Virus record (IMG/VR): IMGVR_UViG_3300033463_000001
Coordinates: 32,001 to 96,000 of that record
DNA: 64,000 nucleotides
Reading direction: 5' to 3' (one strand)
Source: a virus
Lineage: Duplodnaviria; Heunggongvirae; Uroviricota; Caudoviricetes
The position numbers were made by a program, and so were the translations under genes. The notes under the pieces are model-generated. The model saw only the letters and a program-made list of their open reading frames with translations. It did no database searches and had not been told where the DNA came from. Each line of letters starts with the position of its first letter. Position 1 is the first letter of the stretch. Positions 3,912-11,292 of the stretch are shown in pieces.

Positions 3912-4441
3912 CGTAGCGGGCTGTGATGGCGCAGCGTAAGAGACGTAACGTAGTGAACGTGGCGTAGTGAATAGAATGTATTGTGAAGAAACGCAATATG
4001 CAGAAATACTACTATGGAATTTGTTTGGGTGTGGTATAGTGATTAGCGATAAGGACACAGCGTAATACTACTACGTGGACGGACGAAAATACAGCCGTGG
4101 AAATACTGCTGTAAAAATGGACTTGGAGGCGCCCGTAAAACAGTGAAAATCAGCCAAAATATTGTTCGCCGAGAATTTTTTCCAATTTTTTCCAAAATTT
4201 TCAAAAAATTTTCCCCACTTTTTAAGTCACCTAATGGGACCACCCTTTTGTTGACATTTTGTCACAAAAACACCGGATTTTCGTGCAAAGTGTAAGTTTT
4301 GCCTATAGGGAAATTTTGAAAAATCTGGCATTTTGTCACATTTCTTGGTTTTGGCATGGAAATTAACCCAACGGACGTCTCCTGGCCTATAGAGACAAAA
4401 AAAATGGGAGATGTTCTCTCCCATTCATAATCTCTGTGTTA

Positions 4442-4955: not shown

Positions 4956-5032
4956 TGGTCGGGATAGCGGGATTCGAACCCACGTGCTCTTGATTCCAAT
5001 TCAAGCGAGATAAACCACTCCTCTACATCCCG
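4956..5032 (-). tRNA. tRNA-Pro(TGG)
   Basis: cloverleaf, cttga-AT TGG AA-tcaag, CCA encoded, A32. Confidence 0.9.
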
Positions 5033-5063
5033 TTGATACTGATAATATCATTTCTTTTTTGTT

Positions 5064-5093
5064 GCGGAACGAGCCGCTACTCGTTTCGCTTCT
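5064..5093 (+). terminator. hairpin plus T-run, copy 1 (antisense to tRNA operon)
   Basis: gcggaacgag-ccgcta-ctcgtttcgc-ttct. Confidence 0.5.
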
Positions 5094-5097
5094 TGTG

Positions 5098-5171
5098 CGG
5101 TTCGGGCAAGACTTGAACTTGCGACCCTCTGCTTAACAGGCAGACGCTCTAACCAACTGAGCTACCGAACC
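5098..5171 (-). tRNA. tRNA-Asn(GTT)
   Basis: cloverleaf, tctgc-CT GTT AA-gcaga. Confidence 0.92.
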
Positions 5172-5176
5172 GAATG

Positions 5177-5250
5177 TACCCCGAATGGGATTCGAACCCA
5201 CACTGTCAGGATTCTAAGTCCTGTGCCTCTACCAATTGGACTACCGAGGT
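5177..5250 (-). tRNA. tRNA-Leu(TAG), short variable loop
   Basis: cagga-CT TAG AA-tcctg, A73. Confidence 0.88.
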
Positions 5251-5265
5251 GTTGAGAGCAGGTTG

Positions 5266-5676
5266 TTACGCCTGCTTTACCTCAATGGTCGGATTCCTTT
5301 CCTCAGGTTTGAACGTGGCGAATTGCCAGTCGATAACCCTCTGGATGAATCTGTCTACAGTGCTATCTGACAGTTCTCCGTCGCACAGGTCATTGCCGCG
5401 AGTCCAGTCCTCGAAGGGTCGCTCACAGCGATTATTCACGCCCGCGATTAAGTTCCAATACTGAGTGCCGTCTTGCCTGTAGACGAGTCCCATAACCGCA
5501 GAGAAACGATATCTGTCATTGGCTTCAATGTACATGCGGTATAAACATTCGTCCTCGGTGCTTTTCTCTAAGTAGACTTTCCCGGCGAAGTAATAAGCAA
5601 AGCGTTTGAGTTCCGGATGTTCCAGTACGAAAGCAGTCCAATCTGCTTGTTCAAATCCATCGTGGTTGTTAAACAT
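5266..5676 (-). CDS. hypothetical protein
   Basis: ORF fills gap between tRNAs. Confidence 0.75.
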   Translation of the reverse strand: MFNNHDGFEQADWTAFVLEHPELKRFAYYFAGKVYLEKSTEDECLYRMYIEANDRYRFSAVMGLVYRQDGTQYWNLIAGVNNRCERPFEDWTRGNDLCDGELSDSTVDRFIQRVIDWQFATFKPEERNPTIEVKQA

Positions 5677-5709
5677 ATCTGTTGTTGTTTGTTAGCGTGT
5701 GTATTCCGG

Positions 5710-5783
5710 AGACAACGGCCAGATTCGGACTGGCGAATACTAGTTTTGCAGACTAGCCCCTTAGACCACTTGGGTACGTTGTC
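5710..5783 (-). tRNA. tRNA-Cys(GCA)
   Basis: ctagt-CT GCA AA-actag, U73, T-loop TCCGAAT. Confidence 0.88.
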
Positions 5784-5813
5784 AGCTCTATAAATTTCAT
5801 TTTTTTTCTTGTT

Positions 5814-5844
5814 GCGGAACGAACCGCTATTCGTTTCGCTTTTT
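5814..5844 (+). terminator. hairpin plus T-run, copy 2
   Basis: gcggaacgaa-ccgcta-ttcgtttcgc-ttttt; compensatory change relative to copy 1. Confidence 0.55.
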
Positions 5845-5845
5845 C

Positions 5846-5973
5846 GTGGCAGCGTAGCAAGGATTGGTTATGACGCCTACCAATCAGCTGTTACTCGTCT
5901 ATATGCGAATTCCGCAATCGTTGATGTTATCTCAGCGGCGTGCGCCAGTGACGTAGACTTTCACATGCTCCAC
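5846..5973 (-). ncRNA. candidate small structured RNA
   Basis: closed multi-stem fold with possible ACGCC/GGCGT pseudoknot; strand uncertain. Confidence 0.4.
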
Positions 5974-5979
5974 TCTGTG

Positions 5980-6053
5980 TACCCCGAATTGGATTCGAAC
6001 CAACACTGTATACGCTCTGAACGTATTGCCTCTTCCAGTTGGACTACCGGGGC
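5980..6053 (-). tRNA. tRNA-Leu(CAG), short variable loop
   Basis: atacg-TT CAG AG-cgtat. Confidence 0.88.
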
Positions 6054-6074
6054 ATTGTTGCTTACTCAGCATTG

Positions 6075-6148
6075 TACCCCTGGAAGGATTCGAACCTTCA
6101 CTGGCCAGATTTTGAATCTGGTGCCTCTACCGATTGGACTACAGGGGC
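6075..6148 (-). tRNA. tRNA-Leu(CAA), short variable loop
   Basis: ccaga-TT CAA AA-tctgg. Confidence 0.88.
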
Positions 6149-6156
6149 ATTTTGTG

Positions 6157-6230
6157 TACCCCGCCTGGGATTCGAACCCAGACTGAACAGGGTTTAAGCC
6201 TGATACCTCTACCTATTGGGTTAGCGGGGT
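6157..6230 (-). tRNA. tRNA-Leu(TAA), short variable loop
   Basis: cagg-CT TAA AC-cctg. Confidence 0.85.
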
Positions 6231-6317
6231 GTGTTACAGCACCTCGCATAATCGATTGCACACAGAAAGCTCTGCTGTGGCAACCGTCCTAATATGGTAG
6301 AATTTATATTCCATCGA

Positions 6318-6983
6318 TTATATTAAATTCGTTTCTAGGTATTTGTTTTCTTCTTCATATCCACCCGCGATGAGTATGTCCGTTACCTCTATATCATCCA
6401 GGCCTTGTGTGTGACTAACGCCATCTCTATTGTCCAGGTACCACACCTCTTTGAAGTAACATGCCAGCACCGGTATAATGGGAATCATCTGTGAGTCCCC
6501 GGAGATAACTAGTGTGCGGCCGTTATGTACTCCATTATTGATAATCCTGCTACACTTATGAGGGAATGCGTAGAGGTTATGGTATTGTGTCAATGATTCA
6601 TCTTTGTTCTTCCCATTCCTGATAAAGTCAAAGGACATGTTGCGGAAAAACATATCGTCTGTCAGGTTATACACATCAAACCGTCGTCTTTTGTTTGGTT
6701 CTAGGTAAGATACATCATGTCCTTCGTGGCGCCTCTCGACCAGCTTGAAATCATTAACATTATAACCAAAGTGCAAGAGCTTTTCAATAGTCGGCAACAC
6801 ATAATCGATGTGGTAAAACGGCTTGAAGTGATGCTCGTTGAGTGCATACGTCTTATACATCGAGTTCCTGACAATGGGAAGCTTGGTTGCGTCCGGTGGG
6901 AATAAGTCACAGTTGCGAATCTTATTCTTGCTTGGATAAACGATGTATTTCGTTATGTCGCGGTGTTTGGTTATGTCGTACAT
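6318..6983 (-). CDS. SGNH/AlgX-DHHW-like protein
   Basis: TLVISGDSQMIPIIPVLACYFKEVWYLDNR resembles the GDS block of DHHW/AlgJ-like proteins. Confidence 0.5.
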   Translation of the reverse strand: MYDITKHRDITKYIVYPSKNKIRNCDLFPPDATKLPIVRNSMYKTYALNEHHFKPFYHIDYVLPTIEKLLHFGYNVNDFKLVERRHEGHDVSYLEPNKRRRFDVYNLTDDMFFRNMSFDFIRNGKNKDESLTQYHNLYAFPHKCSRIINNGVHNGRTLVISGDSQMIPIIPVLACYFKEVWYLDNRDGVSHTQGLDDIEVTDILIAGGYEEENKYLETNLI

Positions 6984-7030
6984 AGTGTGTGTTTTACTTC
7001 TACAATAAATAGAGATTCAACACAATTCTT

Positions 7031-7106
7031 TGGTAGTCAAAACGGGATTCGAACCCGTGTTTCCTCCGTGAAAGAGAGATGTCCTAGGCCACTAGACGAT
7101 ATGACT
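7031..7106 (-). tRNA. tRNA-Glu(TTC)
   Basis: cloverleaf, CT TTC AC loop, CCA encoded. Confidence 0.9.
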
Positions 7107-7110
7107 GTTG

Positions 7111-7182
7111 CGGACCGGGATGGAATTGAACCACCGACGCGAGGCTCTTCAGGCCTCCGCTCTACCACTGAGCTACCAGTCC
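7111..7182 (-). tRNA. tRNA-Phe(GAA)
   Basis: gaggc-CT GAA GA-gcctc; G73. Confidence 0.88.
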
Positions 7183-7185
7183 AAA

Positions 7186-7261
7186 TAGTCCCGTGTGGGC
7201 TTTCACCACAGACCTCCGCCTTATCGGTGCGGCGCTCTATTTTACTCTGAGCTACGAGACT
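7186..7261 (-). tRNA. tRNA-Ile(GAT), non-canonical
   Basis: ccgca-CC GAT AA-ggcgg (C33), T-loop TGAAAGC. Confidence 0.65.
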
Positions 7262-7856
7262 ATTGTATTGATTGTGCTGCGGCTCTCCTGGATTTATACC
7301 ATTGATATAGCACATAGCACATTGCGCAAATGAACATCACATATAGACCATCACCGACAGGAGTTGGGTTTTCTGGGTAAACAGTAACAGCACCACTTCC
7401 TGGTTTCTTACCATCTAACGTCCACCAATGATACCATAATCCCAGATAAGTGTTCCATCTGTCCCAAGTATTACCACCGTCGTTTGTACGCCACCAATAG
7501 GTTCCGTCCCACCTATATTCGTACCCATCTTCCCACATCCCGTTTGTCGGATTGCCTTGCGTGGAGTTGCCGGTGTCGTATTCGCTGCCATCTCCCCCAT
7601 ACACTACAACCCGTCTGGACTGCGGCCTTCCACCTCCTGAACCTTGGCCTTGACCATTATCCTGGGGTGTCCCACCGTTGCGCCCGGAACCGTTCATGTA
7701 GTACTGCCGTGATGTCTGACCATACCCATCCATTGTGTGGCCGTATCTATATGTATTCTGTTCTGGTATGCGTTGTTGTTGGTTGTGGATGGGAGTATAG
7801 GATGGAAGTAAAAGTGCCACCAACAACAGGAAAAGTATTTTGTATATTTGTTTCAT
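7260..7856 (-). CDS. exported protein with PID-CTERM-like C-terminal anchor
   Basis: signal peptide, Gly/Gln-rich linker, Trp-rich Asp-box-like segment, PVGDG + TM helix + KSRR. Confidence 0.7.
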   Translation of the reverse strand: MKQIYKILFLLLVALLLPSYTPIHNQQQRIPEQNTYRYGHTMDGYGQTSRQYYMNGSGRNGGTPQDNGQGQGSGGGRPQSRRVVVYGGDGSEYDTGNSTQGNPTNGMWEDGYEYRWDGTYWWRTNDGGNTWDRWNTYLGLWYHWWTLDGKKPGSGAVTVYPENPTPVGDGLYVMFICAMCYVLYQWYKSRRAAAQSIQ

Positions 7857-7860
7857 AATG

Positions 7861-7947
7861 CGGAGGCGGTAGGATTCGAACCTACGGAGCCTTTTACAGC
7901 TCGCCGGTTTAGCATACCGGTGGTTTCAACCACTCACCCACGCCTCC
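7861..7947 (-). tRNA. tRNA-Ser(GCT)
   Basis: long variable arm, ccggt-AT GCT AA-accgg, A32. Confidence 0.92.
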
Positions 7948-7978
7948 TCGTTAGGAGTGCATCCTCATTATAAATATG

Positions 7979-8063
7979 CGGAAGGAGAGGGATTCGAACC
8001 CCCGGACCTTTGCAGGCCTCCGGTTTTCAAGACCGGCGCGATAGACCACTCCGCCATCCTTCC
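7979..8063 (-). tRNA. tRNA-Ser(TGA)
   Basis: long variable arm, ccggt-CT TGA AA-accgg, G73. Confidence 0.92.
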
Positions 8064-8071
8064 AATATGTG

Positions 8072-8145
8072 TACCCCCTGTCAGATTCGAACTGACACTG
8101 TATAGGTTCTTAGCCTATTGCCTCTACCGATTGGACTAAAGGGGT
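8072..8145 (-). tRNA. tRNA-Leu(AAG), short variable loop
   Basis: atagg-CT AAG AA-cctat; A34. Confidence 0.85.
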
Positions 8146-8182
8146 GTGTACAGCACTTTCTGATACGTAATCTCCAGCTGTC

Positions 8183-8259
8183 TGGCGGCCACAACGGGAC
8201 TCGAACCCGTAACCCCCGGCGTGACAGGCCGGAATTCTAGCCAGTTGAACTATGTGACC
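8183..8259 (-). tRNA. tRNA-Asp(GTC)
   Basis: ccggc-CT GTC AC-gccgg, CCA encoded. Confidence 0.93.
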
Positions 8260-8265
8260 AATTTG

Positions 8266-8361
8266 TGGGAGGAGAGAGACTCGAACTCCCCTACTGCTAG
8301 AGTCCACTACGACGATTTGATGAAGCAGACGAGTTTTACAGACTCGTGCCGTTATCCTCCC
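8266..8361 (-). tRNA. tRNA-Tyr(GTA)-like, D-armless with enlarged variable arm
   Basis: perfect 7-bp acceptor, cgagt-CT GTA AA-actcg, T-arm present, 8-nt D replacement, ~38-nt variable region. Confidence 0.7.
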
Positions 8362-8633
8362 AAAATATCTATTATGTCAGCGTGCTCAGGATGGTGCTTC
8401 AGGTAAGCCTCAGCAAGCGATTTGTCGATGTAGTATCTTTTAAAGAAGTCCGGTGCTGCGGCTTCCCATTCCTCTTTATGCGATGTGACGTTACCCTCAA
8501 AAGGCTCCGGCTCATGCTTCTTACAATCCTCAATTGCATCAGGGAGAGTTACCTGCCACACAGTTGGATGTAGGCATACAGGGTCGCCATCCCATACATT
8601 AAAGAACTTACACTCTAAGCATCTTGTTTCCAT
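8352..8633 (-). CDS. hypothetical Cys-rich protein
   Basis: METRCLECKFF...; stop overlaps 5' end of tRNA-Tyr. Confidence 0.7.
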   Translation of the reverse strand: METRCLECKFFNVWDGDPVCLHPTVWQVTLPDAIEDCKKHEPEPFEGNVTSHKEEWEAAAPDFFKRYYIDKSLAEAYLKHHPEHADIIDILGG

Positions 8634-8650
8634 TGTACGCTGTATTTTTG

Positions 8651-8723
8651 CAGGAGTGGTAGGGCTCGAACCCACGACCAACGGTTTTGGAGACCGCTAC
8701 TCTACCAACTGAGCTACACTCCT
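8651..8723 (-). tRNA. tRNA-Trp(CCA)
   Basis: gcggt-CT CCA AA-accgt. Confidence 0.92.
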
Positions 8724-8727
8724 GTGT

Positions 8728-9015
8728 AATATAAAATAAGGGTGTGCTGTTACGCCAAAGCCCTCCCGTAAGTCCTACCAGAAGTGGGTTCATAACCCCG
8801 CCGTACTGCCAACGTACCATTCTCTTGAGGGTGGACTGATTACCCCATTATGGACGGCAGACCATTGAATTACCAATGTCATGTTGTGGATGTCTCCCTT
8901 ACAGTCAATAACACTCTGGGCTATTAACTCCCAGTTGCCTAAGGCTCATAGGGCACTTTCTGCACACTCCTTAGAAGATGGCTGCTTCCAGGCCAACTTT
9001 CCCTTATTTTATATT
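8728..9015 (-). ncRNA. 23S rRNA H43-H44 (L11-binding, GTPase-associated centre) mimic with 210-nt insertion
   Basis: GUUGGCCUGGAAGCAGCCAUCUUCUAAGGAGU...GCGUAACAGCACAC closed by a perfect 15-bp terminal helix. Confidence 0.8.
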
Positions 9016-9017
9016 TG

Positions 9018-9088
9018 TTGCCCCACTCCGATTCGAACGGGGATTCCATGAACCAAAATCATGTGTCCTGCCATTGGACGATAGGGCA
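9018..9088 (-). tRNA. tRNA-Gln(TTG)
   Basis: catga-TT TTG GT-tcatg. Confidence 0.88.
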
Positions 9089-9092
9089 AATA

Positions 9093-9143
9093 AAAACAGG
9101 CAAGGTAATTGAAGTTTGTGCCTTCGATATGCCCTGCCTGTTT
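9093..9143 (-). terminator. intrinsic terminator candidate
   Basis: aaacaggca...tgcctgttt stem then U-run on minus strand. Confidence 0.5.
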
Positions 9144-9161
9144 AGAACCGGTTAGTTGATG

Positions 9162-9626
9162 TTACTCAATAAATGGGAACTCATCTACTACCGTTGCCTC
9201 TTTTACCTTGTTGGGTTGCTCCCGATTTGTAAACCGTCGGTTCACCGAGAACGTGAGGCCTGTTCCAATTTCTTTAACATATCCCTGCACTAAAATATCG
9301 TATGTTCCGGATGCTGCGTTTGCACTGAATCGACTTGCGAGTGAATCGTTAACCGCCTTCATTGCAGCAATCTCTTTCGCATTACCTTTTTCCAACACTT
9401 CCTGTTGCCAGGATACCTGTTGACTATTGAACGGGATGGTATCACCGAGCTTGAGAGCCAGAGTTGCCGTACCGTCCATGGAATACGAACCTTCGGGGAA
9501 TACCACTTCGAACTCGCCGTCACCATCACCAGTGATAGCAACGTTATACGCCAGCCCGAATTGGGTAGACTTACACGATGTTAATGTCAGCGCCGCACAG
9601 AGCAGCATGAAAAGAAACTTCTTCAT
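9162..9626 (-). CDS. lipoprotein
   Basis: MKKFLFMLLCAALTLTSC lipobox. Confidence 0.8.
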   Translation of the reverse strand: MKKFLFMLLCAALTLTSCKSTQFGLAYNVAITGDGDGEFEVVFPEGSYSMDGTATLALKLGDTIPFNSQQVSWQQEVLEKGNAKEIAAMKAVNDSLASRFSANAASGTYDILVQGYVKEIGTGLTFSVNRRFTNREQPNKVKEATVVDEFPFIE

Positions 9627-9665
9627 AATTCAATCTTGTTGTTAATGTTGTTATTGTTTACGTTG

Positions 9666-9737
9666 TTGCGCTAGATGGATTCGAACCACCGACCTCCAGG
9701 TTATGAGCCTGGCAAGCTACCACTGCTCTATAGCGCG
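9666..9737 (-). tRNA. tRNA-fMet(CAT)
   Basis: C1:A72 mismatch, ccagg-CT CAT AA-cctgg. Confidence 0.88.
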
Positions 9738-9774
9738 ATATGTAGTCTCTCAAAGAGCTATTAGTTTCAAAAAA

Positions 9775-9925
9775 CCTCTTGGTTGTGTGTAGCGTTGATG
9801 AAAAAATTAATAAAAACATCAACTTAGACACGAGGTCGTATAACACACATCCCAAGTAGGAACTACGAAAGGGAACGTAGCTGGCTGTGATTATTGTGAT
9901 GCCTCATTCACGCATTTTCTTCAGT
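9775..9925. ncRNA. candidate structured RNA between tRNAs
   Basis: cttgg..tgtgtgt/acacaca..ccaag, gttgatg/catcaac and ctacg/cgtag stems. Confidence 0.35.
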
Positions 9926-9929
9926 TGCG

Positions 9930-10003
9930 AGCCTCCAGCCGGCTTCGAACCAGCGACCTGCTGATTACAAATCAGCCGCTCTGACCAACTGAGCTATGGA
10001 GGC
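9930..10003 (-). tRNA. tRNA-Thr(TGT)
   Basis: gctga-TT TGT AA-tcagc. Confidence 0.92.
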
Positions 10004-10009
10004 ATAAAA

Positions 10010-11200
10010 ACAAAGACTTCTTGACTACCGTGCACGTAGAGTCTTTGCACCTTGCCTATGGTCTACTATGTCCTGACCTACACAAGTCGGTAAAGTACAA
10101 TCCAAACCCGACCACAGCCAGACTGGCGCTATCATCTGAAACCACAACCTCAAGAAAGTTGGGAAAACGGCTCCAGAAGCTCTTGGTGAAGTGTCTAATA
10201 CGCGATAAGTGCTGTACTTTACGGCAATAACACGCACGAGTAAAAATAACACTACACCTCAAACATATCCGGCCATATAGGAGACCGGTACCCTCCGCAT
10301 CGGGTGTTAAGTCGCTGCGGCTCCTAGATTATCTCGACTAGGCTCTAGGCTGCCATGTCTCATCCGGGTCGGTACGAATTGTGAAGCCCCAGTGGGTGTT
10401 GACAGAGCATGCTATCGAGATAGATGCTGACGAGTCGTCACCCGGATGAAATAGGATTGACTGATTGAGTTCAGTCAGTCTATAAGAACCGATGTATGCG
10501 GCCTCTCGCTGCTTTGCGGAAAGGAGGTGGTGCACAAGCCAGACGGAGACGGCGGCCACACCGGTGTTAAATACAAACTATCGTACTGCGTCTTACGGAC
10601 TGGTGAAACTGAAGATTTCATTCAGATATGCCCTCGCGCAATGGCTATATGCTTCGTCGCCTGCGTCCGGGTTTGTCACTGGTCGACATGAAGAAACGAA
10701 TCTCAACATGCCCCATTGGATAATGGTTTACACCGCGTGCGGTTCTACTCACCTGTTGCGTTATTCTCACCCTGTTTTATTCTGCAAATTAGTATCACTA
10801 TATCTACAGGATTGCTCTACGTCCATCAGGAAGCTCCATTGAGCGCCTACCGGGAAACCGGTTAGATGGGGTTACGGAGAGGCAAGGTTCAGCCCCGTGC
10901 GGGTTCTGCCCGCCAGCGGGTTCTACCCGCGAATGATACACTGAACGTGATAGTCTGTAAAGGAGTGTGGGGCGGCGCGGCTTTCGATAGCGAAGCCAGT
11001 GTGCGTAACTATTGAAACAAAGCGCCGCCACCACGGAACCGACTGGTGGGAAAATGATTGATTGGTAAGTATGGGCACGCGCCCGAATGGCACGTGGGAA
11101 AGTGTGGAGCCCGGAGCATGGTGCCGCGATAGAATAGCAGCGAGGCGCCCCTTAGGTCTCCTGGAAATCCAGTCGGTTGGAAATTAGTCTAAGGTACAAA
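10010..11200 (+). ncRNA. large highly structured ncRNA candidate (GOLLD/ROOL-like class or new)
   Basis: no credible ORF; many 8-10 bp long-range helices; G.U pairs and GAAA loops favour + strand. Confidence 0.6.
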
Positions 11201-11219
11201 TTTCAAAGAACGTTTTTAG

Positions 11220-11292
11220 TGGACACAGGTGGGATTCGAACCCCTCTGTCACAGTGCAAATGTGACGTGCTAGCCGTTACACTACCCGGCCC
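11220..11292 (-). tRNA. tRNA-Ala(TGC) with atypical acceptor and T stems
   Basis: tcaca-TT TGC AC-tgtga, G3.U70, A73; 8 nt precede U8. Confidence 0.72.

Follow-up and report, generated by a model that had tools for sequence, protein, structure and literature searches.

Genomic setting of the tRNA-Tyr gene

The DNA analysed here (64,000 nucleotides, hereafter the window) belongs to a virus record of 327,393 bases that is about 93% complete, and it carries on its minus strand a co-oriented phage tRNA array (positions 4956-11291) delineated by ARAGORN and Rfam calls. Within this array, between the genes for tRNA-Trp (8723-8650) and tRNA-Asp (8259-8183), lies a tRNA-Tyr(GUA) gene of 96 nt (8361-8266, minus strand), which extends from G1 to A73 and is conserved as a whole, pseudoknot included, across homologues. 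No CCA is encoded 3' of A73, where CAA stands instead, and CCA is likewise not encoded for most tRNAs of the array. A search of this phage genome returned a single copy of the gene, scoring 104 bits with model R1. ARAGORN, the use of which had been proposed as a check in a preliminary description of the locus, reports 18 tRNAs in the 64-kb window and misses the pseudoknotted tRNA-Tyr, while Rfam gives no match to the gene at the gathering threshold, its best score being for tRNA-Sec (25.6 bits vs a cut-off of 47). Low-threshold ARAGORN calls of tRNA-Tyr with 1.5-kb introns and of a tmRNA in this genome were treated as noise. Two further tRNAs missed by default ARAGORN were found by Rfam on the minus strand at 7186-7261 (41.7 bits) and 11221-11291 (32.8 bits), for which lower-threshold calls give Ile(GAU) and Ala(UGC), respectively.

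The array has other peculiarities. Five tRNA-Leu genes on the minus strand (5177-5250, 5980-6053, 6075-6148, 6157-6230 and 8072-8145, with the anticodons UAG, CAG, CAA, UAA and AAG) are only 74 nt long and have short variable loops, unlike both tRNA-Ser of this phage, which retain long arms. Two of the three class II types, Leu and the rewired Tyr, are hence remodelled in this phage. The spacers at 8728-9015 and 10010-11200 are long and hold no convincing open reading frame.

Regarding the host, matches to a Bacteroidota-type promoter pattern are in large excess in the window (26 vs 3.2 expected), indicating that the phage probably infects Bacteroidota. About 20 of these promoters (TTTG...TAnnTTTG), spread over positions 3355-40936, are near-identical, and most of them lie between 13429 and 40082 on the minus strand.

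Upstream of the tRNA-Tyr gene, an orphan open reading frame of 93 amino acids (8352-8633, minus strand, ATG at 8633) overlaps the acceptor 5' strand with its last codons. As first noticed in the preliminary description, it stops within the segment replacing the D arm, its TAA codon (8354-8352) consisting of U8-A9 and the next A. Searches returned only the match to itself, with no Pfam or PHROG family. As judged from sequence comparison, the overlap is incidental local packing, since the reading frame has no homologue and since crAss001, whose copy of the tRNA gene is located between tRNA-Lys and tRNA-Phe, has tRNA-Lys at the same position, 9 nt upstream.

Homologues in crAss-like phages and metagenomes

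BLAST matched the gene to a region of the cultured gut phage crAss001 that is 75% identical and carries no annotation, and to 29 related records; these 30 GenBank entries represent crAss-like phages that were cultured or sequenced. In crAss001 the gene occupies 4141-4235 of MH675552.1. Homologues were collected by pattern searches of viral, metagenome and genome collections followed by a filter on the stems, a loose pattern having returned mostly chance matches. The homologue search suggested in the preliminary description thus yielded at least 130 distinct sequences in at least 204 loci from phages and metagenomes, on contigs ranging from crAss-like size (approximately 100 kb) up to 640 kb; other tRNAs are present in 194 of the 204 loci. 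The exact pattern derived from the window had no match in IMG/VR. Among 185,579 prokaryote genomes, the gene occurs in two MAG contigs only (L216:2973-3066 and L232). These contigs, of 59 and 78 kb and labelled Firmicutes and Tenericutes, contain the same kind of tRNA array and may represent prophages, mobile elements or misbinning.

A first set of 114 homologues is 90-96 nt long. The anticodon is GUA in all 114 matches of a pattern in which the anticodon was left free, and A73 is found in 112 of them, with anticodon loops of the tyrosine type (U33 and a purine at 37). Two loci each carry two different copies of the pseudoknotted tRNA-Tyr (L193:1388-1482 and 2291-2385; L338:709-803 and 808-899). 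The paper describing crAss001 gives 25 ARAGORN-type tRNAs and no comment. As ARAGORN called none of 206 copies of the pseudoknotted gene, phage tRNA inventories, including that of crAss001, undercount tyrosine tRNAs.

In two RNA-seq studies, the crAss001 gene is covered by contigs, which give neither ends, strand, CCA nor level, may reflect DNA carry-over and were therefore discounted as evidence. Cover was found in runs X2, X4 and X5 and was lacking in run X8.

Architecture of the RNA

All the elements that had been read from the window (acceptor GGGAGGA/UCCUCCC, A73, an 8-nt D replacement, a GUA arm, a 38-nt variable region and a T arm) are borne out on the minus strand. The acceptor 5' strand, GGGAGGA (8355-8361), pairs with 8273-8267, all seven pairs showing two-sided changes and 98% of cells being paired. 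It is followed by a U8-A9 linker (8353-8354), invariant in an alignment of 86 sequences and fixed by the search patterns, and by ACGGC (8348-8352), which stands in place of the D hairpin and forms the 5' strand of the pseudoknot, pairing with 8313-8309 in 130 of 130 sequences. From the acceptor 5' strand to the anticodon stem there are thus 8 nt alone, UAACGGCA (8354-8347). The anticodon arm (8330-8346) has a covarying 5-bp stem and the loop CUGUAAA, with GUA at 8339-8337, U33 and A37. The variable region of 38 nt (8328-8291) is closed by CUGCU/AGCAG, enclosing GUCGUAGUGGAC. The stem proposed for it exists, with only four of its five pairs conserved: the 5' strand CUGC (8325-8328) pairs with GCAG (8294-8297), supported by covariation and followed by U-A-G (8293-8291), the four pairs being 99.4% paired and three of them showing two-sided changes in the 86-sequence alignment. 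This 4-bp stem is capped not by a short loop but by a 27-nt pseudoknotted one. Its first part is a linker (8314-8324) that leads from the variable stem to the pseudoknot, with a conserved CAAAU at 8319-8315 in the same alignment. Next come the pseudoknot 3' strand GUCGU (8309-8313), a transposed D-stem strand forming 5/5 pairs in 58 of 58 sequences collected with a pattern from which this strand was absent, and AGUGG (8304-8308), a transposed D-loop motif in which the equivalent of G18-G19 (8305-8304) is present in the same 58 sequences. The T arm (8274-8290) has a covarying 5-bp stem and the loop UUCGAGU, and the RNA ends with the acceptor 3' strand UCCUCCC and the discriminator A73 (8266-8273; A73 at 8266).

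Compared with a cloverleaf, the RNA has the 7-bp acceptor with its discriminator, the 5-bp anticodon stem, U33 with a purine at 37 and the 5-bp T stem with a UUCRA loop; the D hairpin between the acceptor and anticodon arms is absent. The 5' D strand (10-13) of an ordinary tRNA starts beside 44-45 and leads to A14...G18G19; its 3' D strand (22-25) continues through 26 into the anticodon stem, and U8-A9 lie beside A21. By analogy, ACGGC would be equivalent to the D-stem 3' strand (approximately positions 21-25), leading into 26 and the anticodon stem, and GUCGU would correspond approximately to D-stem positions 10-14. According to this comparative model, re-threading of the chain turns the D stem into a pseudoknot of 5 bp, all class II helices being kept in another order. 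The chain would run from U8-A9 through ACGGC, the normal 3' D strand, straight into the anticodon arm, with no D hairpin. The counterparts of the other D-stem strand and of the A..GG motif would be the segments located in the loop closed by the 4-bp variable stem, from where GUCGU pairs with ACGGC in the pseudoknot. An 11-nt linker would bring the chain from the far end of the variable stem to GUCGU-AGUGG, and a short linker after GG would return it to the same stem. The pseudoknot helix probably stacks on the anticodon stem in the manner of a D stem and the GG of AGUGG is expected to contact the T loop, so that the molecule would adopt the usual L shape with a variable stem. There may be a parallel between the invariant A-U pair that ends the pseudoknot and the 8-14-21 interaction, involving U14, in Escherichia coli tRNA-Sec (PMC7609411).

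The preliminary description had called the RNA D-armless and compared it with animal mitochondrial tRNAs. There is indeed no D hairpin; however, the replacement strand is paired in 130/130 sequences and the GG is kept, and the label is misleading because nothing has been lost and the chain has been re-threaded. Its further suggestion that the D-loop function may have moved into the variable arm is supported by the conserved AGUGG motif and by the pairing of the preceding strand with the D replacement. An intron-containing or permuted gene was also considered and dismissed, given that both ends stand in their normal order and that the insert forms pairs with the body.

Covariation evidence for the pseudoknot

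Across the 86-sequence alignment, the 26 pairs of the five helices are formed in 98.6% of cells, a value reached by none of 500 shuffled alignments, and pairing falls to 34-54% when the partner strands are slid out of register. The pseudoknot helix is 100% paired in this alignment, and 650 of 650 cells are paired over the 130 distinct sequences listed. This pairing is maintained through sequence changes, as illustrated by the compensating changes between the window (ACGGC/GUCGU) and crAss001 (ACAUC/GAUGU). Over the 130 sequences, pair 3 is G-C in 102, A-U in 24 and C-G in 4, all six pair types occur at pair 4, and pair 5 is C-G in 118, A-U in 8, U-G in 3 and U-A in 1; none of 5000 shuffles per pseudoknot pair reached the observed count. 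To control for bias, a search pattern without the partner strand and without the GG was used: all 58 distinct sequences recovered form five of five pseudoknot pairs and all have the GG, within the motif A-N-Y-GG in 53 and A-U-GG in 5. When the pseudoknot columns were left out of tree building, 7 changes were counted on each side of pair 3 and 7 for the pair as a whole, and the changes therefore coincide. The tree is short, and its supported independent contrasts were too few to allow a sign test.

Two rival nested helices were rejected, being 27.6% and 65.7% paired with no covariation. A structural scan gave 98 matches on the real strands and none on reversed sequence. Across homologues, the acceptor and T stems have constant lengths of 7 and 5 bp, their sequence being free and their pairing kept. 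Most patterns prescribed the T loop, U8-A9 and CAAAU, whose conservation is hence in part built in; that of the T loop is not independent evidence. Altogether, the acceptor, anticodon, variable and T stems as well as the pseudoknot helix are demonstrated by covariation, and the conservation of the tRNA-Tyr fold in 130 homologues, the 0/500 shuffles and the empty reversed scan rule out that it is due to chance. No covarying candidate for the 15:48 Levitt pair was found among the top mutual-information pairs and, as no position covaries like it, the core may differ from that of a normal tRNA.

That the gene would instead encode a truly D-armless tRNA with a floppy loop, or be a decayed gene or an assembly error in which the complementarity is accidental, is hardly credible in view of these data. 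It is true that single-sequence folding, which is only modestly better than for shuffled sequences (z approximately -1.7 to -2.1), leaves the region poorly defined and that RNAalifold leaves both strands unpaired; this program, however, cannot draw pseudoknots. The complete pairing of the helix, with two-sided changes of several kinds and with the same outcome in the unbiased set, and the presence of the gene in the GenBank records of crAss-like phages stand against it, and the recent deletion or assembly error envisaged in the earlier description is excluded by homologues with the same layout.

Probable function as a tyrosine tRNA

The features of the gene point to a working tRNA-Tyr(GUA) with a re-threaded chain, which we predict to be charged and to decode with a probability of roughly 0.75. 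The array transcript would be cut, and CCA added by a host or phage enzyme; this genome does encode a CCA-adding-type enzyme. The corresponding gene, for a protein of the CCA-adding/poly(A) polymerase family (PF01743, approximately 493 amino acids), lies outside the window (contig C1:3980-4378), downstream of a reading frame resembling by eye the C-terminal part of DnaK. Charging would be performed by the host TyrRS, recognizing A73, GUA, G1-C72 and the variable stem, and the tRNA would read UAU and UAC during infection. Indeed, A73 and U35 are critical tyrosine determinants (PMC9976931) and the S4 domain of bacterial TyrRS binds the variable arm (PMC5370408); in the window copy the bacterial tRNA-Tyr identity set (A73, GUA, G1-C72 and variable stem) is present. 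In this genome, 93% complete, no phage TyrRS was found, nor any synthetase of the LeuRS/IleRS/ValRS type. The pseudoknotted tRNA-Tyr is the only GUA tRNA in this phage genome and in crAss001, and tyrosine codons account for 5.3% of codons in the phage reading frames. The 7/5 stem lengths, with free sequence and kept pairing, are what is expected of a substrate of EF-Tu and the ribosome.

A different reading is that of a structured tRNA mimic acting outside translation, either as a decoy for a tRNA-Tyr nuclease or defence sensor or by sequestering TyrRS, the pseudoknot conferring stability or nuclease resistance. In its favour, defence systems are known to target tRNA-Tyr (PMC11555353), proteins could bind to the surface offered by the invariant CAAAU linker and one or two canonical tRNA-Tyr genes often lie within a few hundred bases. 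Moreover, pair 1:72, a TyrRS identity element which is G1-C72 in the window and crAss001 copies, drifts across the family (G1-C72 in 75 of 114 members, C-G in 26 and U-A in 10). However, cloverleaf tRNA-Tyr genes adjoining it in the same loci show similar variation at 1:72; when each is compared with the neighbouring rewired copy, the first base is the same in 28 of 40 pairs vs 20.5 expected, the pairs not being independent of one another. In addition, two large arrays have no GUA tRNA other than the rewired gene, and the conservation of the 7/5 stems, A73 and U33/R37 in 130 sequences goes beyond what an anticodon decoy needs. We thus regard such a mimic as rather unlikely, and the decoy role put forward in the preliminary description found no specific support. 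Canonical tRNA-Tyr genes, sometimes two, accompany the rewired one in 17 of 50 arrays, some of these calls being doubtful. Strict replacement of the canonical tRNA-Tyr as a rule for the family was accordingly rejected: since about one third of the arrays hold a canonical gene, the pseudoknotted tRNA-Tyr does not stand in for it in every case.

RNase P and 3' processing enzymes read the acceptor and T arms of tRNAs. As the RNA retains these parts and long non-coding spacers separate tRNAs of the array, it might serve as a processing signal punctuating the array transcript, or else, once charged, as an aminoacyl donor outside ribosomal decoding. Both uses appear very improbable: the anticodon arm is strictly of the tyrosine type, with a covarying 5-bp stem that processing does not need, and no aminoacyl-transferase partner was identified. 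We therefore retain a decoding tRNA-Tyr as the preferred reading.

Comparison with known tRNAs and tRNA-like structures

To our knowledge, natural tRNAs differ in arm length or lose arms and are always nested cloverleaves. An unusual order of segments is also known from the permuted and split tRNA genes of archaea and red algae. In these it is the gene that is permuted, the mature RNA being a cloverleaf, whereas in the phage RNA the acceptor ends are in normal order and no splicing restores a cloverleaf. In plant-virus tRNA-like structures, a pseudoknot is located in the acceptor branch. As in these structures (TYMV TLS-Val and BMV TLS-Tyr, the latter being tyrosylated; PMC9976931), a pseudoknot mimics a part of a tRNA, but they form the 3' ends of viral genomes with no role in protein synthesis, whereas the phage tRNA is a free-standing gene with a normal acceptor.

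Among the nearest counterparts are bacterial and phage class II tRNA-Tyr(GUA) (RF00005; E. coli tyrU/tyrV; phages T5 and SP15, PMC11555353), with which the RNA shares the 7-bp acceptor, A73, G1-C72 (in this copy), the CUGUAAA loop, a variable stem, the 5-bp T stem, U8, the GG motif and the position in a phage tRNA array. It departs from them in that it lacks a D hairpin between the acceptor and anticodon arms, the D stem is a pseudoknot with the variable loop, the variable region is 38 nt long and the GG is on the 3' side of the anticodon. D-armless mitochondrial tRNA-Ser(AGY/UCU) and other truncated mitochondrial tRNAs (PMC7609411) likewise have a short strand in place of the D hairpin; however, they are shorter and have lost their D elements, while the phage RNAs have 90-96 nt, relocated D elements and a paired replacement strand. 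Finally, tRNA-Sec, allo-tRNAs and the 8/4 and 9/3 tRNAs (PMC5389517) resemble it in their length (approximately 90-100 nt), their long extra arm, their being missed by standard finders and the occurrence of some in phages. In contrast to the 7/5 phage RNA, allo-tRNAs and tRNA-Sec keep the nested cloverleaf, in which the D hairpin is intact and long and the acceptor and T lengths are altered to 8/4, 9/3 or 8/5. Neither a review of non-canonical tRNAs (PMC7609411) nor the allo-tRNA paper (PMC5389517) mentions a pseudoknot, this layout is not described in the crAss001 paper or in a paper on zeta-crAss phages, and a literature search, for which most subscription journals were outside reach, returned no published description of it. 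While the tRNA-Tyr itself is of a known kind, its chain topology is thus one for which no description was found in print.

A pseudoknotted tRNA of this conserved kind would mean that tRNAs usable by host enzymes can be reached by routes other than the cloverleaf, and it would provide a new scaffold for the design of orthogonal tRNAs. Since Bacteroides intestinalis supports the growth of crAss001, this phage is open to direct tests of processing, charging, structure and fitness.

Possible defence evasion and tRNA-Tyr diversity in phages

Why such a topology would be kept is a more speculative matter. The odd topology might sustain the decoding of tyrosine codons once ordinary tRNA-Tyr has been depleted by host defences, and evasion of this depletion is, among the reasons we considered, the one we would tentatively put first. 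A phage tRNA-Tyr rescues T5-like phages from retron-Eco7 PtuAB, and host defence can deplete tRNA-Tyr (PMC11555353). In T5, rescue depended on promoter strength and direct cleavage of tRNA-Tyr by PtuAB was not seen in vitro (PMC12819146); on both counts, structural escape is not established. It is conceivable, at somewhat less than even odds, that these phages hold a natural translating tRNA which attains the L shape through a pseudoknotted D stem supplied by the variable arm, and that this layout evolved in phages as a class, of which the tRNA-Ile candidate below would be a second example, so as to be accepted by host synthetases and ribosomes but not by tRNA-directed defences.

A candidate tRNA-Ile (GAU) without D hairpin was observed in a single locus (L361:4104-4183, plus strand), in which ACAG pairs with CUGU, located in a 23-nt variable region that lacks a variable stem and followed by AACGG. 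It is a single example, a further scan for copies of this type having returned this locus, one chance match and nothing else.

The family also offers a handle on why phages carry tRNAs, since several phages hold two or three tRNA-Tyr architectures. Indeed, canonical class II, short class I (72-73 nt) and rewired builds are found side by side in some of them, as in L348 (916-989 and 997-1069), L199, L282 and L322, several of these tRNA-Tyr genes having U1-A72 or C1-G72.
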